Shown here in pieces: positions 25,849-53,632 of a DNA stretch of 64,000 nt. Position numbers and translations under genes: made by a program. Numbering within the stretch: position 1 is the stretch's first letter; each line of letters begins with the position of its first letter. The notes beneath the pieces were generated by a model, which saw only the letters and a list, made by a program, of their open reading frames with translations, was not told the DNA's origin and ran no database searches. The DNA comes from Thermoanaerobaculia bacterium (lineage in GTDB: Bacteria > Acidobacteriota > Thermoanaerobaculia > Multivoradales > Multivoraceae). The stretch covers positions 4,384,001-4,448,000 of the forward strand of contig OY761158.1 in the NCBI GenBank assembly GCA_963664405.1, in the 5' to 3' direction.

Positions 25849-26105
25849 CGGACGTGATCACCTTGTGCGTCCTTTCGCGCGACGCAACCCGGGCCCCGCG
25901 TCCTGAGTCGGACTTCGACTTCCCGGTCGCTGCCCGAGATGAGCTGTTCGCCCTTCCAACCCTCTCGTCGTCCCGGCAGGGAAAGTGCCATCTCGCTACT
26001 TGCTAGGACGCGCTCCTCGAACCGAGGGAAGACTACAGACGACAGACGATGACGGTCGAGTAGGGTGTACACAGCAATAAAATGCACGACTGAAGGAAAC
26101 CACGA

Positions 26106-26513
26106 ATGAAGAGACGTCATGGAAGCTGTCTTTGCGGCGGTGCAAGGTTTGCGATCACCGGCGAGATTCGGGGGGTCGGAAGTTGTCACTGCTCGAAGTG
26201 CCGCAAGGTGTCTGGGACCGGAGGGAACGCTCAGTTCATTGTTCCAAGAGACAGCTTTCAGTGGCTTCGGGGTGAGTCGGATGCCATGACCTTCCAACGC
26301 GATGACGGCTGGAGCGTGTCTCGCTGCAACACCTGTGGCAGCCCACTACCTCGTAGCTATGACGGACAACGGTTCTGGGTCCCTGGGGGCCTGATGGACG
26401 ACCCGCTCGACACGGACGTGAAGAGGCACATCTTCTGCGCTTCAAGAGCAGACTGGGATCGAGAGTCAGAGACTGCCGAGTACCACGATGAATACCCGCC
26501 AGCGCTCAGCTAG
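26106..26513 (+). CDS. GFA/CENP-V family Zn protein
   Basis: GSCLCG, CHCSKCRK, C..CGS, HIF..S.A.W. Confidence 0.9.
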   Translation: MKRRHGSCLCGGARFAITGEIRGVGSCHCSKCRKVSGTGGNAQFIVPRDSFQWLRGESDAMTFQRDDGWSVSRCNTCGSPLPRSYDGQRFWVPGGLMDDPLDTDVKRHIFCASRADWDRESETAEYHDEYPPALS

Positions 26514-26582
26514 CATGGCCTAGGCTCCGACAACTTGTTCCTTTCACCTTTCCCTTTGGGCTAGTGTTGGTGCGAGCAGAGA

Positions 26583-27311
26583 ATGTCTATCTCAAGGGAG
26601 AGCATCAAGGGACTGTGCTTCGATTTCGGCAATACGCTCGTGGAATTTGGACCCAGGCAGGTAGCCGCACAGTACGAAACATTTGAGCGAACGTTGACTG
26701 GCCTGTTCGGTCCCTGCGACGCAGCGCGCTTCAAGGCCGTGCGAGATCGCCAGCGCGCTGCCCCGCTCAGCAACGGCTATAAGGAGAGCGAATTGACGTC
26801 GCTCTCGCAGGAGTTGATTCGGGAGCTCTATGACGCGGAGCCGGACGAGAACCACATCGAAGTCCTAAATCAGACGCGTTGCGATTCGGTAGCTGATGCC
26901 ATTGAACTTAACGATGAGGTGTTGCCGCTCTTGCGCGAGCTCCGGCGGCGGTACCGCCTGGGATTGTTGTCGAACTACCCCTGCGGTCGCTCTGTTCGCA
27001 ACGTCCTCGCCAAGGTGGGCCTGTTGGACATCTTCGAGGTGGTTGTGATCTCGGGCGATGTCGGGTACGTGAAGCCTCACACCAGGCCGTTCGAGGCCAT
27101 GTTGTCGCAGATGGGCCTTGCCCCCTCGGAGTGTCTATACGTCGGCGACAACTGGCTGGCGGATATTCAAGGGGCAAAGCAGATCGGGATGCGGGCGGTT
27201 CTAACGACTCAGTACACACCCCACACAATCTTCAAGCCCGTGGTGGGCGATCACTTACCCGACGCACGCATCGCACACCTAGACGAACTTCGGGCGCTGC
27301 TTCTGAGCTGA
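26583..27311 (+). CDS. HAD-family hydrolase, copy 1
   Basis: FDFGNTL, LSN, KP, VGD..DIQGA; near-identical to 48767..49495. Confidence 0.9.
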   Translation: MSISRESIKGLCFDFGNTLVEFGPRQVAAQYETFERTLTGLFGPCDAARFKAVRDRQRAAPLSNGYKESELTSLSQELIRELYDAEPDENHIEVLNQTRCDSVADAIELNDEVLPLLRELRRRYRLGLLSNYPCGRSVRNVLAKVGLLDIFEVVVISGDVGYVKPHTRPFEAMLSQMGLAPSECLYVGDNWLADIQGAKQIGMRAVLTTQYTPHTIFKPVVGDHLPDARIAHLDELRALLLS

Positions 27312-27345
27312 GACTGGGCCGCACCGATTCCTCTATCGCATCCGC

Positions 27346-27372
27346 TACCACCTTCCGCTAGAGAAGGCGCCA
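27346..27372 (+). repeat. 27-bp palindromic site (10-7-10)
   Basis: TACCACCTTC-CGCTAGA-GAAGGCGCCA. Confidence 0.75.
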
Positions 27373-27579
27373 ACGCCCATCGCAAGCTTCCACCAGTCCG
27401 GTCGCGATCAGAATCACCGCTGTCAGAGTCGCCTGGAGGACGAGCAGCGACTGCTGCGCCCCGAGCGTTCCGAATAGGCGACTTTGTCGCTTGTTCCTCA
27501 GACGCTCCGTGGAAAGACGGATTGGAAACCCGCAGTCCAAACCTCGTGGAGAGTCCTGGGGTAGCCGGTCGGCGAGAGG

Positions 27580-27707
27580 TGTACCTTGATGGCGACATCC
27601 CGCTCCAGGCGTGTGTCACGACCCAGGTACACCTCTCCCATGCCGCCCTTGCCGCGCAGCTCGACGATCTCGTAGGGACCGAGGCGTGTGCCAGCTCCTA
27701 GAGCCAT
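27580..27707 (-). pseudogene. Ser/Thr protein kinase N-terminal fragment
   Basis: LGPYEIV..G.GGMGEVY..RD.RL.RDVAIKV, then similarity is lost. Confidence 0.85.
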
Positions 27708-27920
27708 GACTTGGCGACATCTTACCCGTCGCCCGACGGGATCAGCGGGGCTCGATCTAACGTGTCGCGAAGGACCACAAACTACGACAGCGATCTCCGC
27801 TAGCCCCCGTAGTTATTGCACTCTTGGGCCGCCCCGGGGAGATTTTGCGACACCGTGTCGCAAAATCTGCGAAGGTGCGACACCCCCGCTTCCGACAGCG
27901 CAACAAAAGTACCCTCGTCA

Positions 27921-27981
27921 TGGCACCTTCCGCTACAGAAGGCGCCAACGCCCATGGCACCTTCCACTAGAAGACGTGACA
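27921..27981 (+). repeat. two tandem 27-bp palindromic sites
   Basis: TGGCACCTTC-CGCTACA-GAAGGCGCCA (27921-27947) and TGGCACCTTC-CACTAGA-AGACGTGACA (27955-27981). Confidence 0.8.
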
Positions 27982-28126
27982 ACTGACCGAGTCTCTGGAG
28001 TATGGTCTATCAATGCCCGGCGGGCGCTATTGAGACAAGCCGCTCTCGGCCATCGCCTCTCGCACCTGCTCGCCGGCAAAGTGAGTCGTGTCATTGAGCA
28101 ACGGTGCCGGTTCGGTGTACTCGCTA

Positions 28127-28906
28127 TCAGGTAGCAACAGAGAGTTGTAGCACCAGCTCATTCCCGTCGCCGAATGCCTCGCCCTGATAGCCGCCCCAAG
28201 TGCTCACGATCGCGAGCCCTTGGTCTCCCACCAGCTCGGCAATCTGATCTGGATACCAGCAGCGCATTGTGATTGGCATCGTGAGTTCCTCTAGTAGTTC
28301 GTCGCCGCGATACCGTCGGAAGACGAGCTCCGGGTACAGCACCAGCCTCTTCGCGTCCATTCGCGGCCGCCGATCTGAACCGACGATGCGCTCGTCTCCG
28401 ATCCATCGTTCCCACTCAACTGTCTCTTCTTCTCGAATCCATCCGGCACGCAGCGCGTCCGGGTCTTTCAAAGGCTTGAACATCGTCAATACACAGGAGC
28501 CGGAAGGCTTCATGTGTTGGCGCAGGCAGCGAAAGAAGCCTGCCACCTGCTCGTCCGTCTCCAGAGCCTGGAATACTCGGTACGGCGCCAGGACAAGATC
28601 GAACGTGCGGCCGAGGTCGAAATCCGTAATGTCGGCCTCAATCAGACTGATTCTGCGCTGAACGTCACCTGGTAGGCGGCGGACCTTTCCCTCTGCAATG
28701 TCAAGCATGGCCCGCGAGAGGTCGATACCGACGGCTGAGCCACACAGCTCCGCCAACTCGAGGATCACCCGACCGGTCCCACAGCCGAGCTCCAACAGGG
28801 AGGTTCCTCGGGAAGTGATGAGATCTCGGTAGAAGGGGACGTCTTCGTCGAAATCCTGAAGATCATAGAACTTCGCGGCGCCGCTGCGTTGGTCAACTGT
28901 CTTCAT
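28127..28906 (-). CDS. class I SAM-dependent methyltransferase
   Basis: DVPFY, LELGCGTGR, GIDLS..ML, FDLV. Confidence 0.9.
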   Translation of the reverse strand: MKTVDQRSGAAKFYDLQDFDEDVPFYRDLITSRGTSLLELGCGTGRVILELAELCGSAVGIDLSRAMLDIAEGKVRRLPGDVQRRISLIEADITDFDLGRTFDLVLAPYRVFQALETDEQVAGFFRCLRQHMKPSGSCVLTMFKPLKDPDALRAGWIREEETVEWERWIGDERIVGSDRRPRMDAKRLVLYPELVFRRYRGDELLEELTMPITMRCWYPDQIAELVGDQGLAIVSTWGGYQGEAFGDGNELVLQLSVAT

Positions 28907-28952
28907 TGAGTTCTCACGATTGTATGCACGACGGCTCTACGATGCGCTGGGC

Positions 28953-28979
28953 TGTCGTCTTCCACTACAAGACGTGCCA
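28953..28979 (+). repeat. 27-bp site
   Basis: TGTCGTCTTC-CACTACA-AGACGTGCCA; direct repeat of 27955-27981. Confidence 0.72.
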
Positions 28980-29089
28980 ACTCAGCGTTTCGCCGGAGAG
29001 CCCACTAAAACCAACGCGTGAGAAATCTGACCAACAAGCTCACCCCAGATAGCGAGGGAAGAAGAGCCGTGGCGATCAGAATCATGCCC

Positions 29090-29998
29090 TCACGAGCAAG
29101 AGGTCAACGGAAGGTAGCGACGTATCCGCTCAAGTCCACTACTCACTCGCTTCGGGTGGTTGTCCAGGTAGCCGTAGTGGACCTCGCCGACGGCGATCAT
29201 GATGGCCTTGTGTTCAAGCCAGCGCCACTCGTCATCATCCGGTTCCGCGCCATAGGTCCAAAAGGCACGCGCCGCGCACTCACGACCGCCCGCGTAAAAG
29301 AGACCTCCGAAGTCGGCACTTCGGATGGTGGTGCAGGCATCGGCCCAGTCGATGATGCCGGCCAGGGCGCTCGTTGCCGGGTCCACGAGGATGTGGTCTG
29401 CTAGCAGATCTGCATGCGCCAGCACAAGCGGCACTTCTGGTTCCGGCGGCAAGGGGTCCTGGAGGTAAGCGTCGAGCCGCCTGCGGAGCGTGGCAGAGTA
29501 CGCATCGGCGGAATGACGGAATTCGCGCAACGCCCACTGGCTGTAGTCCTGTCCTGCCCAGGGGCTCGGGACCTCAGTTGCGATGCGCGCCCGGTGCAGG
29601 ACGGCTAGAAACTCACCGACTTCTGCTGCGACGTCGTTGAGGATGGCGGCATCACTAATGTCAGTGAGGGGCGTGCCGCTCAGGTATCTGTAGGCTGCGA
29701 AGTGCCACGGAAATTCCGCGAGCGGGGAGCTGAAGTACTCGAACCCTGGCACCGGGACGGGCAGCGGCAGATTGTGCATCCGCTTGAGTATCTCCCGTTC
29801 CCGGACGAGCACGCCATCGCACTCGGCGCGCTTCGGAAATCGTAGGACCCATTCGCCGTCGGCGAGGTAGCTGATGTAGTCGAACCCCTCGGCCAGTTTC
29901 TCGACGTCTGCGCAGCGTATACCGAAGGCGCGGCGCGCGAGCGCCCCGGCACGGTTGGGCTCCAGTTGGAGCTCCGCCGCCCACGGGAAGTGGGTCAT
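29090..29998 (-). CDS. aminoglycoside phosphotransferase (APH)-family kinase
   Basis: WVLRFP, HADL..HILV, GIIDWAD. Confidence 0.88.
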   Translation of the reverse strand: MTHFPWAAELQLEPNRAGALARRAFGIRCADVEKLAEGFDYISYLADGEWVLRFPKRAECDGVLVREREILKRMHNLPLPVPVPGFEYFSSPLAEFPWHFAAYRYLSGTPLTDISDAAILNDVAAEVGEFLAVLHRARIATEVPSPWAGQDYSQWALREFRHSADAYSATLRRRLDAYLQDPLPPEPEVPLVLAHADLLADHILVDPATSALAGIIDWADACTTIRSADFGGLFYAGGRECAARAFWTYGAEPDDDEWRWLEHKAIMIAVGEVHYGYLDNHPKRVSSGLERIRRYLPLTSCS

Positions 29999-30500
29999 GG
30001 GTTTGCCATCCTGCCCGTTGAAGGCGCTCGGGAGATGCTGCCCGCCCGACGCCTTGTTGAAAGGGAGAGCTGAAGAGCCACTTAATTGTGATAGCGAGAC
30101 GGCGCGCCTAGCAGGCCAACGATTCTAAGAGAGTGATCACGTGTTGATGGCTGCGAGAAAGCGCATCCCGTTGGCTGCGAGCGCAGTTTCCGGGATGGAG
30201 TGAGCTGAGGGCTTCGCGACCGCGGGAAAGCTAGGCCTTCTTCAGGAAGGGCGGCATCATCCCGCCGGAACGGCGGTCCGGGTGCGTGGTCCCGGCGGCG
30301 TGTTTGCGGTCGGAAGAGATGCGTGAGTCGGTGTAGGGCTTTGCAGTGCGGGCTCTGCTCTGATAGAGCAGGCCGACCAGAGACGGCGAGAGCCCGGGAA
30401 AGCGAAGTAGAAAACGCCCCGGGCTCTGCCCCAAACCGCAGCATTAGCTGCGCTTGCAGTATGGCAGAGAGTCGGGGTCGTCGTCGAATGGGAGGCGACG

Positions 30501-30896
30501 ATGCGACCGGACTACCGACTCTTCGACTGTGCTCGATGCCGTCGGCGTATCTCGCTGTGCTCGCACTGTGACCGTGGCCAGCGTTACTGCCGGGCTTGTG
30601 CTCTGGTGGCTCGTCGGGAATCGACTCGGGCGGCCGGCCATCGGTACCAGCGAAGCCTCCGAGGTCGGCATTGTCATGCCGCCCGTCAGGCCCGCTACCG
30701 TCGGCGCCAGCGCGAGCGGGCAGAGAAAGTGACGCATCAGGGTACCCCAGGCGGTACTTCGGGGAGGACACTGTGTCGGATCGAGACTCCGAGGCGCGAA
30801 GTGCGCTACGACCCGAGGAATCCGCGATGCATGCAGTGTGGAGAGGCCTGCCGAGAGTTTGTGCGAACGAGCTTTCGTCGTTGCCGACGGAGATAG
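30501..30896 (+). CDS. IS21-associated Cys/Arg-rich Zn-finger protein
   Basis: CARC...CSHCDRGQRYC..C and a C-terminal CMQC; GGGAGG ribosome-binding site. Confidence 0.75.
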   Translation: MRPDYRLFDCARCRRRISLCSHCDRGQRYCRACALVARRESTRAAGHRYQRSLRGRHCHAARQARYRRRQRERAEKVTHQGTPGGTSGRTLCRIETPRREVRYDPRNPRCMQCGEACREFVRTSFRRCRRR

Positions 30897-30900
30897 GGGC

Positions 30901-32409
30901 GTGATCGACGCACAGCTGCGCGGGGAGATCCGTCGTCTGTTCCTGGTCGAGAAGTGGAAAGTCGGCACGATCGCTCGACAGCTACAGCTGCACCCCTCAA
31001 CCGTGCGCCGGGCGCTGGAGAAGTCCGGCGTGCTACCCCAGCAGCGACGAGGGAGGATGATCGATCCTTACCTGCCGTTCATCGAGCAGGTGCTCGGGAC
31101 CTACCCACGACTGCCGGCGAGCCGTCTCTACACCATGGTGGTGGAGCGCGGCTATCCAGGAGGCCCGGATCAGTTTCGCCACCTGGTGGCCTCGATGCGA
31201 CCGAAGCCCCAGCGCGAGGCGTTTCTCTCGCTGCGCATGCTGCCAGGAGAGCAGGCGCAGGTCGACTGGGGCCACTTCGGTCGGCTCCGCGTCGGCCGGG
31301 CACATCGTCGGCTCTATGCCTTCGTCTTCGTGCTGTCGTTCTCGCGCACGGTCTTCGTGCACTTCACCCTCGACACTCGTCTCGAAACCTTCTTGCACGC
31401 TCACCAGCTGGCCTTCCACTACGTCGACGGCGTCGTCAGGACCGTTCTGTACGACAACCTGCGAACCGCGGTGATCGAGCGGCAGGGAACCGCGGTGCGC
31501 TTCCATCCCGTGCTGCTCGATTTCGCCAGCCACTACGGCTTCCTTCCCACCGTCGCCGCGGTGGCTCGGGGAAATGAGAAAGGCCGCGTCGAGCGCGCAA
31601 TCCGCTTCCTGCGAAGCTCGTTCTTCGGCGCCCGAACGGTGAGCGATTTGGATCGTCTGAATCGGCAGGTCCTGGAATGGTGCCAGAGGTCGCAGCGCAG
31701 ACCCTGGCCGCAGGACCGACAGCGAACCGTGAAAAGCGCCCTGGCCCAGGAACGACCTCGACTGCTTGAGCTTCCCGGAGACGACTTCGAAACCGACCTG
31801 CGACTGGAGATCAAGGTCAGAAAGACGCCGATCGTGCGCTTCGACCTCAACGACTACTCGGTGCCGCACAGTCATGTGCAGAGGACCGTCACGCTCCTCG
31901 CCAGCGAGCATCGGGTGCGGATCCTCGATGGCCAGGAGCTCCTCGCCGAGCACCCTCGCTCGTACTCCCGGGGCGAGCAGATCCTCGATCCTCAACACCT
32001 CGAGGAGCTCCTCGCTCACAAACGCAGGGCCCGACGACACCGGGGCTTCCATCGGCTGTTTTCCGCTGTGCCTCGATGCGAAGAGCTGATGCAGCAGCTC
32101 GCCGAGCGAGGCGAGAACCTCGGAACGCAGACCGCCGGCCTGCTCCGACTCCTGCGCCAGTACGGCCCCCAGCGACTCGACAAAGCCGTGCGCGAAGCGC
32201 TCCTGAACCACGCACCGCGATTCCAGTCCGTCCGGCTCCTACTCGAACGGCACCAGCGCGGCCTCGGTCAGCCCCCGGCTTTACCGGTGCCGCTCAGCCA
32301 GGAGCTCCAACAGCGAGATCTCTCCGTGAGACCGCACAACCTCGAGGACTACGACCAACTTGGAGGCAACGACGATGGCCCGACCCAGGAAGAGTCCAAC
32401 GATCCCTGA
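30901..32409 (+). CDS. istA: IS21 transposase
   Basis: PGEQAQVDWG, LSFSR, YDN, EKGRVER. Confidence 0.93.
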   Translation: MIDAQLRGEIRRLFLVEKWKVGTIARQLQLHPSTVRRALEKSGVLPQQRRGRMIDPYLPFIEQVLGTYPRLPASRLYTMVVERGYPGGPDQFRHLVASMRPKPQREAFLSLRMLPGEQAQVDWGHFGRLRVGRAHRRLYAFVFVLSFSRTVFVHFTLDTRLETFLHAHQLAFHYVDGVVRTVLYDNLRTAVIERQGTAVRFHPVLLDFASHYGFLPTVAAVARGNEKGRVERAIRFLRSSFFGARTVSDLDRLNRQVLEWCQRSQRRPWPQDRQRTVKSALAQERPRLLELPGDDFETDLRLEIKVRKTPIVRFDLNDYSVPHSHVQRTVTLLASEHRVRILDGQELLAEHPRSYSRGEQILDPQHLEELLAHKRRARRHRGFHRLFSAVPRCEELMQQLAERGENLGTQTAGLLRLLRQYGPQRLDKAVREALLNHAPRFQSVRLLLERHQRGLGQPPALPVPLSQELQQRDLSVRPHNLEDYDQLGGNDDGPTQEESNDP

Positions 32410-33169
32410 CGAACCACTACGAGAGCTCGCCCGATCCCTCGGCTTCTACGCCCTCGTCGACGACTGGGGCACCTACCGAGAACAGCCCTGGCTCGAACAG
32501 CTGCTGCGCAAAGAAGAGGCCGAGCGCAAACGGCGCAGCCTCGAACGGCGCATCCGCACCAGCCGCGTCGGGCTCTTCAAGAGCATCGCCGACTTCGACT
32601 TCTCCTGGCCCCAGCGCATCGACCGCGAGCAGATCCAGGATCTGCTCACCCTCCAATTCCTCGACGACATCACCAACGTCATCCTCCTCGGACCCAACGG
32701 TGTCGGCAAGACCATGATTGCCAAGAACCTCCTCTACCAGGCGCTGCAACGAGGGGCCACCGCCAGCTTCGTCACCGCCTCCGACATGCTCAACGATCTC
32801 GCCGTCCAGGAAACCCCCTCGGCGCTCCAGAGAAGGCTCTCCAAATACACCCGACCCTCGCTTTTGGCAATCGATGAGCTCGGCTATCTCTCCTACGACC
32901 ACCGCCACGCGGATCTCCTCTTCGAGGTCGTCTCCAGGAGATACGGCAACAAGCCCATTCTTCTCACCACCAACAAGCCCTTCGCCGAATGGGCCGAGGT
33001 CTTTCCCAACGCCTCCTGCGTCGTCACTCTCGTCGATCGACTCACCCACCACGCCGAGATCGTCAAGATCGAGGCTAACTCCTATCGCCGCAAGGAGGCC
33101 AAGGAGGCTGCTGAAAAAAAGGCCAAGGACCGCGCCAAAAGGCGGAGCGCAGCACGACGACGCTCATGA
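32375..33169 (+). CDS. istB: IS21 helper ATPase
   Basis: FDFSW, GPNGVGKT, IDELGY, TTNKPF.EW, DRLTHH. Confidence 0.95.
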   Translation: MARPRKSPTIPDEPLRELARSLGFYALVDDWGTYREQPWLEQLLRKEEAERKRRSLERRIRTSRVGLFKSIADFDFSWPQRIDREQIQDLLTLQFLDDITNVILLGPNGVGKTMIAKNLLYQALQRGATASFVTASDMLNDLAVQETPSALQRRLSKYTRPSLLAIDELGYLSYDHRHADLLFEVVSRRYGNKPILLTTNKPFAEWAEVFPNASCVVTLVDRLTHHAEIVKIEANSYRRKEAKEAAEKKAKDRAKRRSAARRRS

Positions 33170-34611: not shown

Positions 34612-35367
34612 CTAGGATTCGAAACGTCGTTGCCGTCGAACTTGCGCCAGCGCACCAAGCACCGCCGTCAAGCTAGGGAAGCGAGGGCAATCAACGTCGC
34701 GCCAGTCATTGAACGGGTCAAGGAGCACCGCGTGAACGCCAGCAGCTCGCGCGCCGACGACGTCCGCGAAGTACATGTCGCCTACGTGAAGCGCTTTCTC
34801 GGGAGAGCATTCAAGGGCGTCCAGAGCGTGGCGAAATATCGACGGATCCGGCTTCTCTACGCCCACGATGTGGGAGTCCACAACTACAGCGAAGTAGTGC
34901 CGTATCCCGCCCTCCACGAGAGACTGGTCCACGGTACCGTCCGAGTTGCTGACGACGCCGAGAGCGAGACCCAAGCCGACCAGCTTGTGAAGAGCCTCGT
35001 CAACCCCGGGAAGAACGGACGACCATAGGCGATTGCTCTGTCCATCGGGCCTCAGAACAGGGGCAAGATCAAAGGCCAGGTCGCGGGTGTCGATGTGCTG
35101 GCCAGTCAAGCCTTTGAGTTGTTCCAGGATAATGCGCAAGTAGCCTTCGAACCCCCGAGGAACGTCAGGCCTCGACTCCGAGGTCATGAGACGAGACAAG
35201 ACCGGTCTGGCTGCAGCTTCTGCTCTCTCCAGAGTAGCGACCGAGCAATCGACTCCGCGCAACCGAAGCTCCTCTTGTACCCACTCGAAGTCCAGAGAGA
35301 TCAGCGTGCCGCCGACATCTAGGAGCACAGCCTCAATTGCGGCTAGCGGCGTATTGTCGAGGCTCAT
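34612..35367 (-). CDS. HAD-family hydrolase
   Basis: LDVGGTL, VVSNSDG, EKPDP, HVGD..DV.GA. Confidence 0.9.
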   Translation of the reverse strand: MSLDNTPLAAIEAVLLDVGGTLISLDFEWVQEELRLRGVDCSVATLERAEAAARPVLSRLMTSESRPDVPRGFEGYLRIILEQLKGLTGQHIDTRDLAFDLAPVLRPDGQSNRLWSSVLPGVDEALHKLVGLGLALGVVSNSDGTVDQSLVEGGIRHYFAVVVDSHIVGVEKPDPSIFRHALDALECSPEKALHVGDMYFADVVGARAAGVHAVLLDPFNDWRDVDCPRFPSLTAVLGALAQVRRQRRFES

Positions 35368-35415
35368 GCAGGTCGCAGGTCTCCTCAGGGCCAGACAAAG
35401 GTGCCTGGCGATCGG

Positions 35416-35844
35416 CTAGATGGCGCGCCACAGGCACGAGAACCGTTCCACGCCGGGGTAGCGCTCACCCAGCGATGAAACCGAGAAGCCGCACTGCTGG
35501 TAGAAATCCCTTGCGTCGGCGTCGGTCTCGGCATAGAGCTCAGAAAGGCGGAGCTTCGCCAAGCCAGAGCAACAATTCACCACATCGCGGTTCAGCCGGA
35601 CCATTCGTCGCCAAGGGCTTGGCCGCTCCCTTATTTCCGAGGTCGTTCGCGAGGCGAGCTCGCCCCCAAGCAACGCCAGCACGTCGGCGTCGCGGACCCA
35701 GCCGAACGCGAACCGGTTCGGCTCCGTCCGGTAGGACCCGACGATCTCGCTCAGTCCAGGCTCAGTAGGCTCTCCGACGGCGTCGGCGAGCAAGACTCGA
35801 ATTGGAGCCTCGGAGAGTCGGAGTCGAATGTTCGAGAACTTCAC
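35416..35844 (-). CDS. GNAT-like acetyltransferase, possibly degraded
   Basis: C-terminal AETD.DA.DFY..CGF..YPGVERF; the acetyl-CoA motif A is not recognisable. Confidence 0.65.
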   Translation of the reverse strand: MKFSNIRLRLSEAPIRVLLADAVGEPTEPGLSEIVGSYRTEPNRFAFGWVRDADVLALLGGELASRTTSEIRERPSPWRRMVRLNRDVVNCCSGLAKLRLSELYAETDADARDFYQQCGFSVSSLGERYPGVERFSCLWRAI

Positions 35845-35866
35845 TCACACAGCCTAGCGTTACGAG

Positions 35867-36667: not shown

Positions 36668-36707
36668 GCTCTTCACGCAACGATAGCTCCCCACGGACGC
36701 GGCTTGT

Positions 36708-39211: not shown

Positions 39212-39218
39212 ACGACCA

Positions 39219-42240: not shown

Positions 42241-42367
42241 CCAAGTAGCGAGCACGGACGCCAAGGGCGCTATACTGAGGAAAGGTGTCAGGCCCTCCGA
42301 GCTCGAGGACTGGAGCCTCCCCGGGTATTGATGTGAAATAGGCCCGTTCCCCGCCGGGTCCGTTCTC

Positions 42368-42428
42368 ATCAGCGGAACGACTGATCACTTTGGCCCGGAA
42401 CCGGCGATCACGATCAGCGGAACACGCA
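42368..42428 (-). mobile_element. orphan IS21-type terminal repeat
   Basis: Minus strand TGCGTGTTCCGCTGATCGTGATCGCCGGTTCC with repeated internal GATCAC/CGGAAC units. Confidence 0.55.
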
Positions 42429-42782
42429 GTCTAAACCGGAAATGATGTAGAGCGTAGTCTACCCTCTTTACCTTCATTGGAGCCCGACGAGGAGCACCCC
42501 CGTCTCCGTGAGTTGAGCAGACGGCGGCCCCTGCTTCCCCCTATCCTTCGTGGATAGGTTGGTGGACAACGAAGGGCGACCCGCTCCCTCTTTAGTTCGC
42601 CTCAGAACACGCAAATCGCGCTGCGGAGGGGTCGCCCTGGTTGAGTAAGGTGCTACTGGTCGGCGTTTGATGCAGCCGCCCTAGCGCCAATTGGCGCTAC
42701 CCCTTCGCCCGCTCCGGCATCTGCACCGAAGCCCGCACCTCTTTTAGCATCCGCTCCGTCATAGCCAGGTCCCCGCGGTTTC

Positions 42783-44166
42783 GAGCTATGGTCGAAAGTT
42801 GTGTATGCGGAGGTTGAAGGCGGCGTATCCTGAGGTTGTTCAACGACCTTGGGACGACCTTCCGGAGAAGGAGGATACGCCGTGGTTCAGGGTAACGCAG
42901 AGCGCTTCAGAGAGCCAGGTACAGCGAGTGTGGATGACGCCTTGACCGAGGTGCTGCGACAAGGAGCCCAGGAGCTGCTCCGGGTGGCGGTCGAGGCGGA
43001 AGTGGGCGAGCTGCTCGAGCACTACGCAGAGGAGCGCGACTCAGCCGGTAGACAGAGGCTGGTGCGCAACGGGCATCTGCCGGAGCGGTCGATTCAGACT
43101 GGAATCGGCGACGTCCCGGTGCGAGTCCCGCGAGTGCGGGACCGGGGTGAGACAGAGGAGCCGATCCGCTTCGAGTCGAAACTGGTGCCGCGCTACCTTC
43201 GCAAGTCCAAGAGCATCGAGGAGCTGCTTCCGCTGCTGTACTTGCGCGGCATCTCGACGGGCGACTTCGGTGAGGCACTCAGCGCTCTGCTTGGGCCCAA
43301 CGCGAAGGGTCTGTCGGCCTCCACGATCAGCCGGCTGAAGAAGGACTGGCTCCAGGAATTCGAGAGCTGGTCCAAGCGCGACCTGGGTCGCCAGCAGATT
43401 GTCTACCTGTGGGCCGACGGGATCTACTGCAACGTCCGCTTCGACGACGCCCGGCTATGCCTCCTGGTGCTGATCGGCGCTGACGAAACGGGCAAGAAGC
43501 GACTCTTGGCGGTTCAGGAGGGCTATCGCGAGAGCGAGCAGTCTTGGCGGGAGATCTTGATGGATCTCAAGCACCGCGGCGTAGCCGTCTCGCCCAAGTT
43601 GGCGGTCGCGGATGGTGCCCTGGGCTTCTGGAAGGCGATCACGAAGGTATTCGGCGACACCCGCACCCAGCGTTGCTGGATGCACAAGACCGGGAATGTC
43701 CTGAACTCCCTGCCGAAGTCGACGCAGCCCAAGGCGAAGAAGGCCTTGCACGAGATCTGGCAGGCGGAGACGAGGGCGAAAGCCTATGAGGCGTTCGATG
43801 CCTTCGTAGAGACCTACGAAGCGAAGTACCCGCGAGCCGCCGAGTGCCTGACTAAAGACCGGGACGAGCTCCTCGCCTTCTACGACTTTCCCAGCCAGCA
43901 GTGGCCTCATCTCCGAACGACCAATCCCATCGAATCGACGTTCGCCACCGTCCGTCTTCGCACTGCCAAGACCAGGGGATGTCTGTCGCGAGAGACCATG
44001 CTCACCATGGTCTTCAAGCTCACTCAGAGTGCCGAGAAACGATGGCGACGACTCAGAGGGTTCCACCATCTCGCTGAAGTTGTCGGGGGAGTCCAGTTCG
44101 TCGACGGAGAACATCCATCAACCATCGCCGCCTGATGCCCCCGTACCCAACATTTGACAATAACTC
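42783..44166 (+). mobile_element. IS256-family element with 9-bp target duplication CGCGGTTTC
   Basis: Ends GAGCTATGGTCGAAAGTTGTGTA and (reverse complement) GAGTTATTGTCAAATGTTGGGTA; duplication at 42774-42782 and 44167-44175. Confidence 0.93.
42882..44135 (+). CDS. IS256 transposase
   Basis: RNG...R...TG.G, WADG, ADGALG, QRCW.H, RTTN.IE; AGGAGG ribosome-binding site. Confidence 0.95.
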   Translation: MVQGNAERFREPGTASVDDALTEVLRQGAQELLRVAVEAEVGELLEHYAEERDSAGRQRLVRNGHLPERSIQTGIGDVPVRVPRVRDRGETEEPIRFESKLVPRYLRKSKSIEELLPLLYLRGISTGDFGEALSALLGPNAKGLSASTISRLKKDWLQEFESWSKRDLGRQQIVYLWADGIYCNVRFDDARLCLLVLIGADETGKKRLLAVQEGYRESEQSWREILMDLKHRGVAVSPKLAVADGALGFWKAITKVFGDTRTQRCWMHKTGNVLNSLPKSTQPKAKKALHEIWQAETRAKAYEAFDAFVETYEAKYPRAAECLTKDRDELLAFYDFPSQQWPHLRTTNPIESTFATVRLRTAKTRGCLSRETMLTMVFKLTQSAEKRWRRLRGFHHLAEVVGGVQFVDGEHPSTIAA

Positions 44167-46319: not shown

Positions 46320-46708
46320 GGGACACCCCAGCACGCCAGGCCATGAGCCCTACTTACGCTCTAGTTACGCCTACAAGGGCCGATCGCTTCTTGGGGGTGT
46401 AGTACCCTTAGCGAGGCCCTGTTCGGGCGTTGTGGGGCCGCTCAGGCGGCCTACACCGTGCTGTTGGCGAACACCTCGCCGCCGCTTCGTCTCGATGACA
46501 TACGGACCGGGTCGATCAGCTTGAGGTTGATTCGACCTAGAGCGGCCGGCTTGACCCGCCTTACCGCCGTGAACGCGTCCAAGCCGCAAAGAGTTCTGTC
46601 CATCGGTGGACGTAACTACATTTCGTGGCGCACTTTTCCCCTCGTCTCCGCATGTATGGACAGGGGAGCGCTGGATTGGGCCAGCCCTTCCTGTGTGGGA
46701 GGTTGAAT

Positions 46709-48400
46709 ATGCCCGAGAGAACACCTGGACTCACTGTTCTCGTGAGTCTGTCAGCCCTAGTGGTCTTCAGCGCGGTACAGGCACAAGACGTGCTTCAGGT
46801 GGTTGATGTGACTGGCCAGACGGTCGGCACGCTGCTCGACAGCCAATTCGTGGTCGTCGACGTTGGTGATGGGCTACTTACGACCGTCACGGTGGCCAAC
46901 TGTGGCCGATCGGGATTTCGGATGTGGTCCGGAAACGGCCCGCGCGTGAGATTCGCCTCGAGTGACTGTTCGGGTCAAGGATACTTTCGTTCAGAAGGAG
47001 GCTTTCTTACCAGCGTCGGCTTTCTAGTATCGCTGGGTTGCTTTACGACCGATCTGGCGTTGTGTAGCTGCGCCGGCCAGACCGCTGACCACAACACCAT
47101 CTATGTGCCTGACCTGGACGGCCCGACCATGTCGTTTACTGCGCACTCGGCTCTGCTACAGAACAGCTCCGAGTGCTTTCCCGAGACACAGAACATCGTG
47201 GACGGCATTCCTGTGAGGGAGGGCTTCGACCCAAGTGTCTTCACAGGCCCCTTTTCGGTCGGTCGCCAAGGCGGGGGCATGATGATGTTAGATGCTTCAA
47301 CATTCACCTCCCCAAGCAACGAGGCATTCGGCGGGGTCCAAGTCGGCAATCGGGGGACCGGAGTACTGGAGATCACAAATGGTGGCACCGTTGACATCAT
47401 TCGCGATTCCGGCCTTGTCGACCCGGGTCCCTCCGGCGTTGTCACTGGGTTCTTTGATACCGGAATCGGTACGGTAAATCTCCGCAACGGATCTTCAATC
47501 TCCGTAACCGGTGGCACAGAGTGGGTGGCGATCGGAAAGTCGGGTCAAGGGACTCTGAATGTGTTGGGCGGGAGCAGCCTAACGCTCGAAAACCTCGATT
47601 CCCTTGGATATGGCACCATCGGTTCGGATCCCGGAGCCGGGGTTCCACCCGCAGTCGGAAGTCTTCTAGTGAGCGGTGTCGGTTCCATGGTAGACACCGG
47701 CGAGATCCTGGCTTGCGCGAAACGCATCTCCGACTCCCTCACTCTCGTCGATTTCGAGCGCATCCCCGCCAATCTGATCGAAGGCGGCACCGGTTCGATG
47801 ATAGTCCGCGACGGTGGGGTAATAAGGGCCGCCGAAATCGTCATCGGACCCGACTGCGTCGCCTCGGGGGATGGCACGCTCGATGGCAATGTGACGCTGG
47901 AAGGCACCCTGCTACCCGGCAATTCACCCGGCACGATCACGATCATCAACGGCAACCTGACTCTGGCAGAAGGCGGCACCATAAAAATGGAGATTGACGG
48001 AACCGGTGCCGGGCAGTTCGACGCGGTGAAGGTCGACGGCGACGTAATCTTGAACGGAGGCACCATCGAGATCGAAATGGACGAGTCGCTCGAACCCGAA
48101 GCGATTTCCAGTGTGATGTTGGTGGAGGCGGTGGGGGGAGATATTAGCGGTACCGTCGAGCTTGTTGTCAACGACAGCGAACCCGAGACGTTGACGGTGG
48201 AAGACTCGGCGACGCTCGTCCCGCTCGTCCCGTGTGAAGGCCCGCCTGGGACTACCGAGCCGTGGAAGAACCACGGCAAGTACGTCTCAGCCGTGGCCCA
48301 CGCTGCCAGCGATCTTTTCGACCGTGGGTTGATCAGTGCGGCGACGAAAGGCGCCATCGTCTCCGAGGCAACTGGCTCGAGTTGCGGCAGCGAGAACTAG
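46709..48400 (+). CDS. secreted protein with autotransporter-like beta-strand repeats
   Basis: Signal peptide; VG..G.G.L.I..GG repeats; PGNSPG; C-terminal WKNHGKYVS..A.SSCG. Confidence 0.75.
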   Translation: MPERTPGLTVLVSLSALVVFSAVQAQDVLQVVDVTGQTVGTLLDSQFVVVDVGDGLLTTVTVANCGRSGFRMWSGNGPRVRFASSDCSGQGYFRSEGGFLTSVGFLVSLGCFTTDLALCSCAGQTADHNTIYVPDLDGPTMSFTAHSALLQNSSECFPETQNIVDGIPVREGFDPSVFTGPFSVGRQGGGMMMLDASTFTSPSNEAFGGVQVGNRGTGVLEITNGGTVDIIRDSGLVDPGPSGVVTGFFDTGIGTVNLRNGSSISVTGGTEWVAIGKSGQGTLNVLGGSSLTLENLDSLGYGTIGSDPGAGVPPAVGSLLVSGVGSMVDTGEILACAKRISDSLTLVDFERIPANLIEGGTGSMIVRDGGVIRAAEIVIGPDCVASGDGTLDGNVTLEGTLLPGNSPGTITIINGNLTLAEGGTIKMEIDGTGAGQFDAVKVDGDVILNGGTIEIEMDESLEPEAISSVMLVEAVGGDISGTVELVVNDSEPETLTVEDSATLVPLVPCEGPPGTTEPWKNHGKYVSAVAHAASDLFDRGLISAATKGAIVSEATGSSCGSEN

Positions 48401-48680
48401 AAGCAACCGCTTCGGCTCAGTGGGAATTGGCTTGTCGTCTTATCTGGCGCACTGCGACACGAATAGCTCGAGCCGAATAAGCCTCCGGTAGCGCGAGGCG
48501 CCCCTATCGAGACGAAAGAAGGCCTACTCAAGGGCAGGCTGTTCGCGGTCCGTTGACAGATCGGCCCGACCCCCCTCATCAAACGCCAGCTGCCAGCAGC
48601 CTTGTCTAGCAGGGGCGGCTCCTCCACGGCGCGATTGCGTAGCTACAGAAGTGGCAAATGAAAGAGGGAGCGGGTCGCCC

Positions 48681-48727
48681 TGCCCCCTTTCACTACAAGA
48701 GGTGCCACCCGCTGCAGAAAGGATGCA
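48681..48727 (+). repeat. 27-bp site with an overlapping degenerate copy
   Basis: TGCCCCCTTT-CACTACA-AGAGGTGCCA, then CC-CGCTGCA-GAAAGGATGCA. Confidence 0.65.
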
Positions 48728-48766: not shown

Positions 48767-49495
48767 ATGTCTATCGCGAGAGAAAACATCAAGGCGCTGT
48801 GCTTCGACTTCGGCAACACGCTGGTGGAATTTGGACCGCGCCAGGTAGCCGCACAGTACGAAACATTTGAGCGAACGTTGACCGGCCTGTTCGGTCCCTG
48901 CGACGCAGCGCGCTTCAAGGCCGTGCGAGATCGCCAGCGCGCTGCCCCGCTCAGCAACGGCTACAAGGAGAGCGAATTGACGTCGCTCTCGCAGGAGTTG
49001 ATTCGGGAGCTCTACGATGTAGAGCCGGACGAACACCACATCGAAGTCCTAAATCAGACGCGTTGCGATTCGCTTGCTGACGCCATTGAGCTTAACGATG
49101 AGGTGTTGCCGCTCTTGCGCGAGCTCCGGCGGCGATACCGCCTGGGATTGTTGTCGAACTACCCCTGCAGTCGCTCTGTTCGCAACGTCCTCGCCAAGGT
49201 GGGCCTGTTGGACATCTTCGAGGTGGTTGTGATCTCGGGCGATGTCGGGTACGTGAAGCCTCACACCAGGCCGTTCGAGGCCATGTTGTCGCAGATGGGC
49301 CTTGCCCCCTCGGAGTGTCTATACGTCGGCGACAACTGGCTGGCGGATATTCAAGGGGCAAAGCAGATCGGGATGCGGGCGGTTCTAACGACTCAGTACA
49401 CACCCCACACAATCTTCAAGCCCGTGGTGGGCGATCACTTACCCGACGCACGCATCGCACACCTAGACGAACTTCGGACGCTGCTTCTGAGCTGA
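48767..49495 (+). CDS. HAD-family hydrolase, copy 2
   Basis: Near-identical to 26583..27311. Confidence 0.9.
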   Translation: MSIARENIKALCFDFGNTLVEFGPRQVAAQYETFERTLTGLFGPCDAARFKAVRDRQRAAPLSNGYKESELTSLSQELIRELYDVEPDEHHIEVLNQTRCDSLADAIELNDEVLPLLRELRRRYRLGLLSNYPCSRSVRNVLAKVGLLDIFEVVVISGDVGYVKPHTRPFEAMLSQMGLAPSECLYVGDNWLADIQGAKQIGMRAVLTTQYTPHTIFKPVVGDHLPDARIAHLDELRTLLLS

Positions 49496-49505
49496 GCTGT
49501 CACCT

Positions 49506-49625
49506 TCCGCGCTTTACACCTGCCAGCGGCATTCGCCACAATCAACTGGGCGAATCGAGCAATCGCGCAGACTCGCTGACTGCGGGTTCCCCTAACGATC
49601 GACGGTGGCGTACAGAGGGGGCGGC
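49506..49625 (+). repeat. 120-bp repeat, copy 2
   Basis: Matches 23314-23433 with one mismatch. Confidence 0.9.
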
Positions 49626-51388: not shown

Positions 51389-51544
51389 ACAGAAGTCCCC
51401 AAACCAGGAGTTGACACCAAAGAAGTCGCCTTCTTCGGGCTAAACGAACTTCCACCGCTGTCGACCGGTAGGACGATCACCTCAGATATCGAGTTGGCGT
51501 TTGAGGCCAAGCACTCTGCCGTCGGCCTCAAAACGTTTGACTAG
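51389..51544 (+). pseudogene. C-terminal fragment of a NUDIX-like hydrolase
   Basis: Reads ..EVAFFGLNELPPLSTGR....FD*; cut by the IS21 end. Confidence 0.55.
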
Positions 51545-51872
51545 TTAGTTGCTTAAGCAATGCCGTACCAACGATTCGTTGCACCGGGCGCTGGCCGCCC
51601 CACAGACAGACGTCGTCGCCCACGGCTCTAGTCCTGCTCGAGCTGCTCGTCGTCCCGAAGAGCTCGCCAACCAGGAGCTTCAGGCCCTACCCGTCTGATG
51701 AAGATCGATCAACAAACATCCCCCGCATCGGGGGTGCTTTTTCTTGTAGTCTTCCGCAACCTGTCAAGAACGCATCCTCGGGAGTTCGAAGATGAAGAGA
51801 TGTCAGTTCTGTGCCGATCCGATAGAGGCTCCCGGTAGAACGACCGTTTCAGAGCGGGGCGGAGGACGACAT

Positions 51873-53447
51873 ATGCGCAGAATTCTGAGGGTCGCAGCGC
51901 TCGGCATGGTGTTGCCACTGATTGTCCCAATTTCGTCCGACGCCGCCACGGCGCGCGGAGTCGTCTTTCACGATGTTGACGGGGACGGTGCTCGCGATCC
52001 CTCCGAGCCTGGCCTGCCGGGTGTCGGTGTCTCCAACGGTCTGGACATCGTGCGAACGGACGACGCGGGCCGCTACCGGCTCGACGTCGACGAAGACGCC
52101 ATCGTCTTTGTGCTTAAGCCGAGGGGCTACCGCACTCCGATCGACGAAAACCAGATCCCGCGCTTCTACTACATCCACAAACCGGCAGGGTCGCCTGATC
52201 TCGAGTACCCCGGCGTTCAGCCAACGGGAGAGCTTCCCGGCGAAATCGACTTTCCGCTCACTCCGCAGGAGGAGCCGGAGCGCTTCGAGGCGATTCTCAT
52301 GGGCGACCCGCAGCCGCGCAACCAGACGGAGATTGACTACCTCACGCACGATGTCGTGGAGCCGCTGATCGGCACCAGCGCCAAGTTCGGCGTCACGCTC
52401 GGGGACATCATGCACGACGATCTTTCGCTTTTCGGATCGATCAACCGATCCATCGCCCTGATCGGCATCCCCTGGTACAACGTGGTAGGAAACCACGACA
52501 TCAATTTCGACGCGCCGAACGACGCGCTCTCCGACGAGACGTTTGAGAGGACGTACGGTCCGCCCTACTATTCCTTCGACTACGGACCGGTCCACTTCCT
52601 CGTTCTCGACGACGTGTACTGGAAGGGGCGCGTCGAGGACCCTGAAGAGAACGTTGGAGGGAACTACACCGGCGGATTGGGCGACGACCAGCTCGAGTTC
52701 ATTCGCCGGGATCTGGAGGGAGTACCGCCGGAGCAGCTCGTCGTGCTGTTCATGCACATCCCACTTGTGGCGCCATGGATCGAGCCGGAACGGGCCGCTC
52801 TGTACCGGATGCTGGAAGACCGTCCGCTCGCCGTGTCGATCTCGGCGCACTACCACTATCAGGAGCACATCTATCTGACCGTGGAGGACGGCTGGCGGGG
52901 ACCGCAACCGCACCACCATGTGATCGCAGTGACCGCGTGCGGAAGCTGGTGGCGAGGCCTCCCGGATGAGACCGGTGTTCCGGTGACTACGGGCAGGGGC
53001 GGCGCGCCGAACGGTTACCTCACGATGAACTTCGACGGGGCCGGGTACTCCGTGGACTTCCACGCCGCACGGGGCGCATCCCACGAGCAGATGCACGTGT
53101 GGGTGCCGGAGTCGGTTCCCAGACGCATGGCACACCTCACGGAGTTCCTCGTCAACGTGTACAACGGATCCGAGCGATCCCAGGTGGAGTTCCGCATGGA
53201 TGATGCCGGCGAGTGGACTGCCATGCAACAGACCGCGCGAGCCGATCCGTTCTATCAAGCCGTCAAGCGCCGCGAGACCGACGACATGCCGGCGCTATGG
53301 AAGTTGCCGGCCCCGATCCGTTCTCCGCACCTCTGGAGTGCGCGGCTGCCGCGTGGACTCGGTCCGGGTTCTCACCGGCTCCAGGTGCGTACGGTTGATG
53401 CGTGGGGCCGCACATTCGAGTCTGCTCGCGTTTTCCGGGTGGAGTAA
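51873..53447 (+). CDS. secreted calcineurin-like metallophosphoesterase
   Basis: G.VF.D..GDG, VSNG, GDPQ, GDI, GNHD, HIP, H.H motifs; signal peptide. Confidence 0.9.
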   Translation: MRRILRVAALGMVLPLIVPISSDAATARGVVFHDVDGDGARDPSEPGLPGVGVSNGLDIVRTDDAGRYRLDVDEDAIVFVLKPRGYRTPIDENQIPRFYYIHKPAGSPDLEYPGVQPTGELPGEIDFPLTPQEEPERFEAILMGDPQPRNQTEIDYLTHDVVEPLIGTSAKFGVTLGDIMHDDLSLFGSINRSIALIGIPWYNVVGNHDINFDAPNDALSDETFERTYGPPYYSFDYGPVHFLVLDDVYWKGRVEDPEENVGGNYTGGLGDDQLEFIRRDLEGVPPEQLVVLFMHIPLVAPWIEPERAALYRMLEDRPLAVSISAHYHYQEHIYLTVEDGWRGPQPHHHVIAVTACGSWWRGLPDETGVPVTTGRGGAPNGYLTMNFDGAGYSVDFHAARGASHEQMHVWVPESVPRRMAHLTEFLVNVYNGSERSQVEFRMDDAGEWTAMQQTARADPFYQAVKRRETDDMPALWKLPAPIRSPHLWSARLPRGLGPGSHRLQVRTVDAWGRTFESARVFRVE

Positions 53448-53594
53448 TGATCGCTTCTCGACCGATCGTAGACAGGGCCGCCTGATCCCGGCCGCGCGCC
53501 GATGTGCCGGAGGATCTTGGCAACAACACGGGGCCGAAGATGAAGGCCTAGAGCCCCGGGAAGGGCTTTAGAGTCAGGAAGCTGTCCTTCGTTC

Positions 53595-53632
53595 TGTCAC
53601 CTCCCGCTGCAGAAGGTGCCAGTGACACCTCC
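53595..53632 (+). repeat. 27-bp site with an extra left arm
   Basis: TGTCACCTCC-CGCTGCA-GAAGGTGCCA, then G-TGACACCTCC. Confidence 0.75.

Follow-up and report, generated by a model that had tools for sequence, protein, structure and literature searches.

The stretch of DNA analysed here (the window, 64 kb) spans positions 4384001-4448000 of contig C1, the single contig of a 6.78-Mb Thermoanaerobaculia genome with 62.6% G+C (G000). Small genes in this window are punctuated by 27-bp sites consisting of two 10-bp arms of a palindrome around a 7-bp core (10-7-10 sites). The first-pass annotation proposed that they are recombination sites of the tyrosine-recombinase type, distinct from attC, at which gene cassettes are shuffled by an enzyme encoded elsewhere. 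Our analysis, which is computational throughout, supports this central idea by three independent lines of evidence: homologous blocks end inside the element cores, a small tyrosine recombinase gene is syntenic with the sites, and the recombinase and the elements co-occur only in G000 and one relative (G008).

Sites in the window

Scanning the window with the strict pattern TGGCACCTTC-N7-GAAGGTGCCA, with up to three mismatches tolerated, gave three matches (27346, 27921 and 53595) where 0.01 are expected, a number reached in none of 100 shuffled sequences. The sites at 27955, 28953 and 48681 were added by sequence reading, a looser core pattern and a profile whose 16 best matches are its own seeds, chosen by eye from the matches of the looser core pattern. 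This makes six full sites, all on the + strand. They are listed here together with related elements and partial copies; scores in bits refer to a position weight matrix (PWM) of the larger family described below.

27346..27372, + strand: 10-7-10 site, core CGCTAGA, 35 nt past the HAD1 stop codon; first site of a decayed doublet (profile E 5.7e-6)
27381..27407, + strand: decayed second site of this doublet, left arm and core only; recognized by the paralogy of 27346-27407 to 27921-27981, missed by the scans
27763..27789, + strand: TGTCG-type 27-bp element of the large family, in a kinase upstream region (24.8 bits)
27921..27947, + strand: 10-7-10 site, core CGCTACA (profile E 2.9e-7; 21.1 bits)
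27955..27981, + strand: hybrid site, core CACTAGA, with the left arm of 27921 and a right arm of the 28953 type (18.9 bits)
28953..28979, + strand: 10-7-10 site, core CACTACA, 111 nt past the APH stop codon, in the canonical opposite orientation to the APH gene (21.1 bits)
48433..48459, - strand: TGTCG-type element, 33 nt past the stop codon of gene 46625-48400, in the canonical arrangement (38.0 bits)
48681..48707, + strand: weaker 10-7-10 site, core CACTACA, upstream of HAD2 (profile E 2.2e-5; below 16 bits)
49498..49510, + strand: left arm and first core bases, 2 nt past the HAD2 stop codon, joined within TCCGC to a 120-bp copy of window 23314-23433; the joint is present in all four metagenome runs
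53595..53621, + strand: 10-7-10 site, core CGCTGCA, 50 nt past the stop codon of GNAT gene 53671-54210 (profile E 8.3e-5; 16.0 bits)

The six full sites of the first-pass annotation are real, but most of the half or degenerate copies listed with them are not separable from chance. This applies to the supposed overlapping copy at about 48700, the arms of which are non-complementary; at 25964 and 38407 only one arm matches, and neither half copy was picked up by any scan. Paralogy to the doublet is all that makes 27381 credible. At 49498, the left arm and the letters CGC are present as described, but the sequence that follows from 49506 is the copy of 23314-23433 and not an insertion sequence (IS) itself. 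The claim of a single core direction holds for the six 10-7-10 sites in the window; it does not extend to the genome, where 16 copies are split into 10 on the + and six on the - strand, and it is further qualified by the related window element at 48433-48459 on the - strand.

The genes most closely associated with the sites are the following.

26583..27311, + strand: HAD1 hydrolase gene (Pfam), with a duplicate, HAD2, at 48767-49495
27573..27707, - strand: stub of a PD40 Ser/Thr-kinase gene, first 45 codons, with a promoter region reaching to 27920 (tblastn, 62% identity to residues 1-45 of a full-length paralogue, E 3e-12)
28127..28906, - strand: class I S-adenosylmethionine-dependent methyltransferase gene, cargo between 27955 and 28953 (Pfam Methyltransf_25, E 2e-16)
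29090..29998, - strand: APH-family phosphotransferase gene, cargo upstream of 28953 (Pfam APH, E 6e-26)

The relations between sites and genes proposed earlier were largely confirmed. The sites are intergenic under heuristic gene calls and the PWM scan found none in the 1.7-15 kb region. Sites 27955 and 28953 bracket the methyltransferase reading frame, and 27346 and 27921 the kinase fragment, which comprises only the first 45 codons and the promoter region. Each HAD copy has a site 3' of its stop codon (35 nt and 2 nt away), the duplication itself ending outside the site cores. A canonical rule, by which the gene to the right lies on the opposite strand with its stop codon facing the right arm, is obeyed by five of the eight good window elements: 27921/27955 (methyltransferase), 28953 (APH), 48433 (gene 46625-48400) and 53595 (GNAT). 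The doublets at 27346 and 27921 are direct repeats flanking the kinase stub, and similar stubs are present in the large arrays. The cargo of the window comprises GNAT, methyltransferase, HAD, APH and GFA genes, interrupted by IS21, IS256 and IS6 elements. The window holds an array that is a decayed outlier, with six canonical sites, two elements of the TGTCG type and some half sites.

The part of the window between about 15 and 56 kb looks like an island and adjoins a tRNA gene at 15053-15125 (+ strand, 71.9 bits), after which IS elements and small accessory genes begin. This tRNA gene was the sole Rfam match in the window, and six loci outside it gave nothing relevant. An IS21-family element at 30141-33169 (IstA 30838-32409, IstB 32360-33169) has about 25 nearly identical copies in G000 (99.8-100% identity); contig depth over it is 160-380, against about 8-10 beside it. 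A palindrome TTGCGACA-CCG-TGTCGCAA lies upstream of site 27921, at 27841-27866. A related perfect hairpin, AAAAGGCGACA-NNN-TGTCGCCTTTT, followed by a T-run, stands about 55 nt beyond an element at genome positions 873756-873900 and at 1686-1830 of the G008 locus L095.

The genome-wide family, its arrays and their breakpoints

Positions given below are genome coordinates unless the window is named. The 10-7-10 form has 16 good copies in G000, six of them in the window, on both strands. Their left flanks led to a wider 27-bp family with termini TGKCR...YGMCA and a core CRCYR at positions 11-15. The expression TGKCR-N5-CRCYR-N7-YGMCA matches G000 98 times and the reversed genome eight times, and the PWM gave 118 matches at 16 bits or more (three in the reversed control) and 108 at 20 bits or more (none in the control). 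The family numbers about 110-120 copies, with the 10-7-10 form as a 16-copy subfamily, and the sites listed by the first-pass annotation make up only about 5% of it. The two forms belong together because chimeric members connect them: a TGTCG-type left arm is combined with a GGTGCCA-type right arm at 1037011, and the reverse combination occurs at 775761 and 5456004.

About 95 copies fall in seven arrays, at 17-41, 599-614, 752-783, 3944-3980, 4985-5004, 5455-5475 and 6510-6523 kb, in which 13/13, 10/10, 22/23, 12/12, 11/12, 15/15 and 10/10 elements, respectively, are co-oriented (93 of 95 in total). The whole-genome PWM scan suggested earlier thus finds clustered matches in nearly fully co-oriented arrays, and not the random orientation in core regions that would have indicated an ordinary repeat or operator.

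The array genes are co-oriented as well, and an element lies 2-30 nt past the stop codon, oriented opposite to the gene. Among the 105 elements outside called genes (heuristic calls based on G+C at third codon positions), the right neighbour's stop codon faces the site in 88 cases versus 17 otherwise and is no more than 150 nt away in 66. The cargo consists mostly of PD40 Ser/Thr kinases of about 890 residues; a kinase-AAA_16-TPR protein, an rpoD-like sigma factor, a Na/H exchanger, an ornithine cyclodeaminase, DUF1326, a methyltransferase and others are also found. Elements frequently occur as doublets: 28 same-strand pairs lie 40-110 bp apart, 23 of them with a spacing of 64-67 bp, and the 39-nt spacer of the doublets holds a small conserved hairpin. 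In each doublet, the end of one element lies about 12 nt 5' of a −35-like box, which belongs to a near-leaderless kinase promoter, and many cassettes have their own promoter. The conserved promoter-like stretch of the kinase paralogues (e.g. L049:5740-5900) carries a TAAGAT box within a GGCGAC...GTCGCC hairpin and ends about 13 nt before the ATG, which suggests that the mRNAs of these paralogues may be near-leaderless.

The TGTCG pattern is matched exactly at 69 places in G000 and at zero to three in any one of 40 relatives. For the 10-7-10 pattern, the counts are 13 in G000 and zero to two in relatives. With one mismatch allowed, the pattern was dominated by noise in the five relatives scanned. 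A wider spread of the exact 10-7-10 pattern was rejected, as one genome each of 185,579 species yielded nine singletons in unrelated taxa, where about nine are expected by chance. Inspection by eye of five PD40-kinase array loci in four related genomes revealed no element; the genes there overlap or are separated by about 10 to about 390 nt. The elements are therefore an addition in the G000 lineage.

The breakpoints of homology between arrays carry most of the argument. Comparison of array against array by BLAST (at least 85% identity over at least 250 bp) gave 203 block endpoints. An element centre is no more than 15 bp away from 46 of them (2.2 expected) and no more than 30 bp away from 65 (5.2 expected). 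The first-pass annotation had named breakpoints in relatives that miss the cores as evidence against its proposal; breakpoints between the G000 arrays do coincide with cores. The clearest example is a 3.8-kb unit at 28158-31984, which is 99.7% identical to 755760-759586 and has unrelated outside flanks. At its left border the left arms differ and identity starts from position 11 of the element; at the right border identity continues through position 16 and gives way to differing right arms. Blocks 767719-768573 and 4989807-4990666 (98.4%) behave alike, as do 5468234-5471075, 6520295-6523133 and 772926-775775 (about 92%).

The same result was obtained when all pairs of the 118 elements were compared with their 40-nt flanks. 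Only four pairs share both flanks; 29 share the right flank only and 124 the left flank only, i.e. 153 share exactly one. With shared flanks of at least 95% identity, identity in seven of 14 right-only pairs, read from position 27 downwards, extends to position 11 and is first broken at 10; in 31 of 51 left-only pairs it extends from position 1 to 14-17. Of the 6,067 pairs without a shared flank, 0.3% (right-type) and 0.9% (left-type) reach as far. Each arm thus travels with its own flank, and the linkage breaks between positions 10/11 and 14-18, in the central core. No one-flank pair has its first difference at positions 11-14, where the partners always agree, as would be the case if recombination required identical cores. 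Homologous recombination would need more than a core of 4-7 bp, and the outer flanks show no relationship; the simplest reading is therefore site-specific exchange within the core.

One further repeat adjoins a site. The 10-7-10 site 3326004 lies about 34 nt to the left of a 2.8-3.0-kb sequence at 3326065-3329000 (L012) that contains a DUF5372 gene, a helix-turn-helix gene and a gene for a 697-residue large serine recombinase; the four other copies of this sequence have no site nearby.

A small tyrosine recombinase near the sites

The catalytic domain of tyrosine recombinases (PF00589) was matched at 25 places in G000. The candidate enzyme is encoded at 5456065-5456601 (- strand), 1.04 Mb from the window and at the edge of the 5455-5475-kb array, by an open frame of 206 codons that gives a protein of 175-179 residues made up of the catalytic domain only (E 3e-29). 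Element 5456004 lies 61 nt past its stop codon, the 10-7-10 site 5455907 about 70 nt beyond, and element 5456690 about 100 nt upstream. The protein is at most 31% identical to the other recombinases of G000; a single fragmentary copy is located at 783 kb, on the border of another array. A close homologue (53-75% identical, in three frames) was found in G008 alone among the 40 relatives and 56 other genomes of the family. G008 is also the sole relative with credible elements (about six by eye), one of which lies about 310 nt downstream of the recombinase homologue.

Synteny of recombinase and site was also seen outside this lineage, in unrelated metagenome loci. Relatives of the enzyme are encoded in 506 stretches of metagenome contigs, of which 80 loci were kept (55-92% identity); G+C content, measured for ten contigs, is 39-50%. 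Among the 76 loci with at least 150 nt of available flank, a 27-mer of the form TGKCR-N17-YGMSA is present within 1 kb upstream in 42 and downstream in three (two and one in the reversed controls), with a peak of 17 sites at −100 to −150. Similarly, the PWM trained on G000 gave 48 matches in these loci (475 kb) and one in the control. A generic palindrome detector was uninformative, with hits upstream of 26 and downstream of 26 of the 76 loci. A good 10-7-10 palindrome is found at many of the upstream sites, with arms that have the same endings and a core beginning CAC or TAC. The 10-7-10 form is therefore the canonical site, of which the abundant TGTCG-type copies represent relaxed versions. 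The gene-proximal site of other taxa overlaps a TATAAT box.

In two contigs, L109 and L110, whose homologues are 92% identical to the G000 protein, the two sequences are identical between the cores of the sites upstream and downstream of the gene, and the outer arms and neighbouring genes differ on both sides. To judge from this sequence comparison, the recombinase gene is itself a cassette bounded at the site cores in L109 and L110. G000 shares the upstream boundary, where homology begins at element position 10.

At E 1e-20 or better the family comprises at least 1,248 members; of the 120 listed, nearly all are 175 residues long, and they bear generic names only. H128, R131, H154 and Y163 are invariant among 25 homologues and R44 is kept in at least 90%; the catalytic lysine is probably K68 or K77, both of which are invariant and lie in the region of two strands of the structure model. 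The model has a predicted local distance difference test score of 82 and its best match is XerA (5hxy; template modelling score 0.76, E 8e-12), with the alignment covering only the C-terminal half of the 266-280-residue chains (score 0.5 when normalised to the target). VchIntIA (2a3v, ranks 7-9, after archaeal Xer proteins), the Tn1549 integrase and XerH follow. Catalytic residues and catalytic-domain fold place the protein in the tyrosine recombinase superfamily. Assignment to XerC, XerD or XerA was rejected: all NCBIfam scores are below cut-off (XerA 117 vs 220 bits, XerC 94 vs 335, XerD 93 vs 330, and 68 bits for the integron integrase model TIGR02249) and the two-domain architecture is missing. 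The neighbours of the gene in other taxa vary and include the plasmid genes ParA and RepA as well as genes of the defence type, among them Shedu, TIR, Schlafen/AlbA_2, methylases and HsdM. In metagenome loci L118 and L176 the gene stands beside ParA and a RepA-type initiator, and some family members are therefore plasmid-borne. The family as a whole is spread across phyla, including candidate-phyla bacteria, and occurs on plasmids and in defence islands.

Interpretation and comparison with known systems

We consider it probable that G000 harbours a chromosomal cassette system other than an integron, based on duplex recombination sites that are likely served by the small recombinase of 175-179 residues. 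The site family, the array structure, the core-centred breakpoints and the synteny of recombinase and site are seen in the sequences themselves. From these patterns we infer a cycle of excision and integration, assign the enzyme and suppose that the system may still be active. The recombinase would bind each site at its two 10-bp arms, with exchange in the 7 bp between them. Where cores match, two sites in direct repeat would recombine, and the intervening gene would be excised as a circle carrying one site. The circle could re-enter at any site with a compatible core, and the sites of the integrated cassette would be chimeric, with a left arm from the left module and a right arm from the right one. 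The G000 lineage may have expanded this arrangement to about 110-120 sites in seven arrays, mainly with PD40 sensor-kinase paralogues.

Several observations weigh against this interpretation. No unit of the window has a second copy bounded at cores; no second copy of the window methyltransferase unit was found at the DNA level, and the methyltransferase of the arrays is just 25-31% identical. The 96%-identical HAD duplication is confined to the reading frame ±6 nt, ending at the stop codon and 6 nt before the start. Contigs of four metagenome runs (two studies) in which this organism is present, covering window 23300-30800, contained no excised circle, a product the first-pass annotation had suggested looking for, nor any deletion joint; they keep the reference arrangement across 27706-30169, their sole joint being the HAD2 locus. 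This negative result is weak because contigs drop rare variants. The phyletic link between recombinase and elements rests on two genomes, and both the PWM and the profile were trained on matches picked in G000 itself. Homology of G000 with L109 ends 3 nt past the recombinase stop codon and not at a site. The recombinase elsewhere usually has only one to three nearby sites, which makes the array habit lineage-specific, and the sites adjoining its gene could be autoregulatory operators. Among the 51 strict left-only pairs are 13 in which differences set in as early as position 8, which the model leaves unexplained; we read them as probable old paralogous promoter flanks. Other recombinases, namely XerC-like integrases linked to IS91 transposases and two resolvase copies, are also present in or beside the arrays. 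The strong evidence for recombination comes from the arrays outside the window; inside it, no unit showed signs of having moved.

These other recombinases give rise to the best-surviving alternative, that the same sites are used by a different enzyme: the IS91-linked XerC-like integrase (seven copies), the 204-residue serine resolvase (two copies) or the host XerC/XerD pair. We regard this as unlikely. Integrase-IS91 units lie in or flank arrays 1 and 2 (34790-37386, 41380-43976, 596842-599449 and from 615106), with ends 20-40 nt from elements, and the resolvase genes (2755044-2755655 and 6509481-6510077) are about 200-250 nt from array-edge sites. The distance from IS91 unit to site varies, however, from about 20-30 nt in some copies to 111 nt in another. 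At E 1e-30 or better, none of the 40 relatives has a homologue of the resolvase, the element-bearing G008 included. Conserved synteny of these enzymes with the sites was neither found nor sought elsewhere, whereas the 175-residue enzyme has it at 42 of 76 loci. As to the host pair, the candidate for the chromosomal dif does not match the sites in the comparison suggested earlier: the sole dif-like 28-mer at the cumulative GC-skew maximum (6765428-6765455) has an ATAA-N6-TTAT layout unlike theirs. The skew maximum is at 6.76 Mb and the minimum at 2.74 Mb; the candidate, which reads ATAA-N6-TTATG, has a gene for a 308-residue tyrosine recombinase 6 kb away. The integrase-IS91 units consist of a XerC-like integrase (286-316 residues), an IS91-family Y2 transposase and a 70-codon open reading frame. 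Their copies, 93-99% identical, are found within kinase arrays as well as at both of their ends, the last one at 615106-616500 or beyond. The two resolvase copies are 93% identical.

Somewhat less credible, and in our view improbable, is the idea that the elements are an ordinary intergenic repeat spread behind stop codons, such as a repetitive extragenic palindrome (REP), a bacterial interspersed mosaic element (BIME) or a miniature inverted-repeat transposable element, which would act as a hairpin terminator or mRNA stabiliser if at all and yield the mosaic junctions as by-products. The location right after stop codons, the fixed orientation relative to the upstream gene, the lineage-specific burst, the element-free kinase arrays of relatives and the hairpin in the doublet spacer would suit such a repeat. 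Yet pairing between the arms beyond the five terminal base pairs occurs at the rate expected from base composition; for the pair 6-22, for instance, 44 of 98 combinations are Watson-Crick (about 45% expected), with 23 G-T and 24 C-A mismatches, neither of which is favoured. No mutual pairing was found between the arms of neighbouring elements either. The lack of arm-pairing covariation marks the element as a site for a protein and not as a hairpin. The absence of a T-run 3' of the sites speaks against a canonical terminator. The copies are clustered in seven arrays instead of being dispersed, and none of the 13 PF01797 (Y1_Tnp, RAYT-like) loci lies near an element, so the neighbourhood of a RAYT/IS200 transposase considered in the first-pass annotation was not observed and a REP/BIME origin with RAYT was rejected. 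A hairpin also fails to explain why the linkage of arm and flank switches in the core.

The least probable alternative, to which we give very little credence, is that the sites are operators of a transcription factor controlling the kinase paralogues and conserved via tandem duplication, with the 175-residue protein perhaps only a DNA-binding repressor: the doublet element just upstream of the kinase promoter and the site over the TATAAT box in other taxa would fit, but elements also stand behind unrelated genes (rpoD-like, Na/H exchanger, ornithine cyclodeaminase, methyltransferase), duplication predicts common flanks on both sides where just four pairs have them and 153 share one, and the recombinase catalytic residues are kept across the protein family. 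A sigma-54 promoter (TGGCAC-N5-TTGC) was rejected by eye, the GG/GC spacing being a misfit on both strands.

A broader form of the cassette-system reading is offered tentatively, its chances being slightly below even. It would be a third independent cassette platform beside integrons and dif modules, with an autonomous circle of about 0.8 kb (27-bp site and 175-residue recombinase), non-autonomous cassettes mobilised in trans, about 35 PD40 sensor-kinase genes shuffled and probably diversified among the seven arrays, and the core classes CACC, CGCC, CACT and CGCT as compatibility groups. Integrons are the textbook case of single-gene capture and reshuffling and dif modules a recent second example; the present finding points to another route, with a much smaller recombinase, simple duplex sites and a chromosomal scale of about 100 sites. 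If this is true, a large unnamed family of 175-residue recombinases, distributed from candidate-phyla bacteria to Acidobacteriota and often with plasmid or defence genes as neighbours, would acquire a function and a cognate site, and the expansion and mosaic structure of the sensor-kinase family in G000 would have a mechanism. A compact recombinase with a defined 27-bp site would also be a potential genetic tool to test. Site, enzyme and predicted products are explicit, which makes the idea directly testable. In the literature covered (PMC8138268 included), no description of the 175-residue recombinase family or of the 27-bp site was found; the family might be listed under a subgroup name.

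The likeness to integrons is considerable. It comprises long co-oriented arrays of mostly single-gene units with the site directly behind each open reading frame, units common to several arrays with junctions inside sites, a tyrosine recombinase of the Xer/IntI ('simple') clade with VchIntIA among its closest structures and, in the window, a cargo of small enzymes (GNAT, methyltransferase, HAD, APH). In contrast to integrons, G000 has no IntI: its best match to TIGR02249 reaches 122 bits against a cut-off of 265, matches skip model positions 182-234 and with them the insert specific to IntI, and the 175-residue enzyme scores far lower still. The attC sites of integrons are imperfect palindromes with RYYYAAC...GTTRRRY boxes that are recombined as folded single strands. 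They measure 57-141 nt and carry R''/L''/L'/R' boxes, whereas the present sites are of a 27-bp 10-7-10 duplex type without pairing covariation of the arms, and GTT/AAC letters are located outside the arms (by eye). Neither a dedicated attI nor a Pc was seen; many cassettes have their own promoter instead, and the recombinase gene is itself a cassette.

The dif modules of Acinetobacter are described as gene modules in varied contexts that are bounded by duplex sites of a tyrosine recombinase, about 28 bp long; the junctions fall at these sites, and the recombinase is encoded elsewhere (PMC6449649, PMC7399989, PMC13141974). Discrete gene modules, short duplex sites and a recombinase encoded elsewhere are features that the present system has in common with them. 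There are differences as well. The pdif sites copy chromosomal dif (11-6-11) and use the host XerC/XerD pair; in G000 the sites do not resemble the dif candidate, and a single protein distinct from that pair is the likely enzyme. The dif modules lie between oppositely oriented sites, while here the orientation is direct, and about 100 sites are located in chromosomal arrays, not on plasmids.

Small tyrosine recombinases with a nearby site (FimB/FimE-type invertases, Cre-loxP and other plasmid resolution systems) are similar in several respects. The likeness comprises a protein of about 175-200 residues without the usual N-terminal core-binding domain, weak NCBIfam matches, far below cut-offs, to tyrosine-type DNA invertases, a cognate palindromic site beside the gene, and ParA or RepA adjoining some homologues; the 13-8-13 layout of loxP is analogous. 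Unlike the invertible switches (FimB/E, shufflon), in which inverted repeats flank the switch, all seven arrays here contain direct repeats. The G000 system is best explained as one that works like an integron or a dif-module system and is a member of neither.

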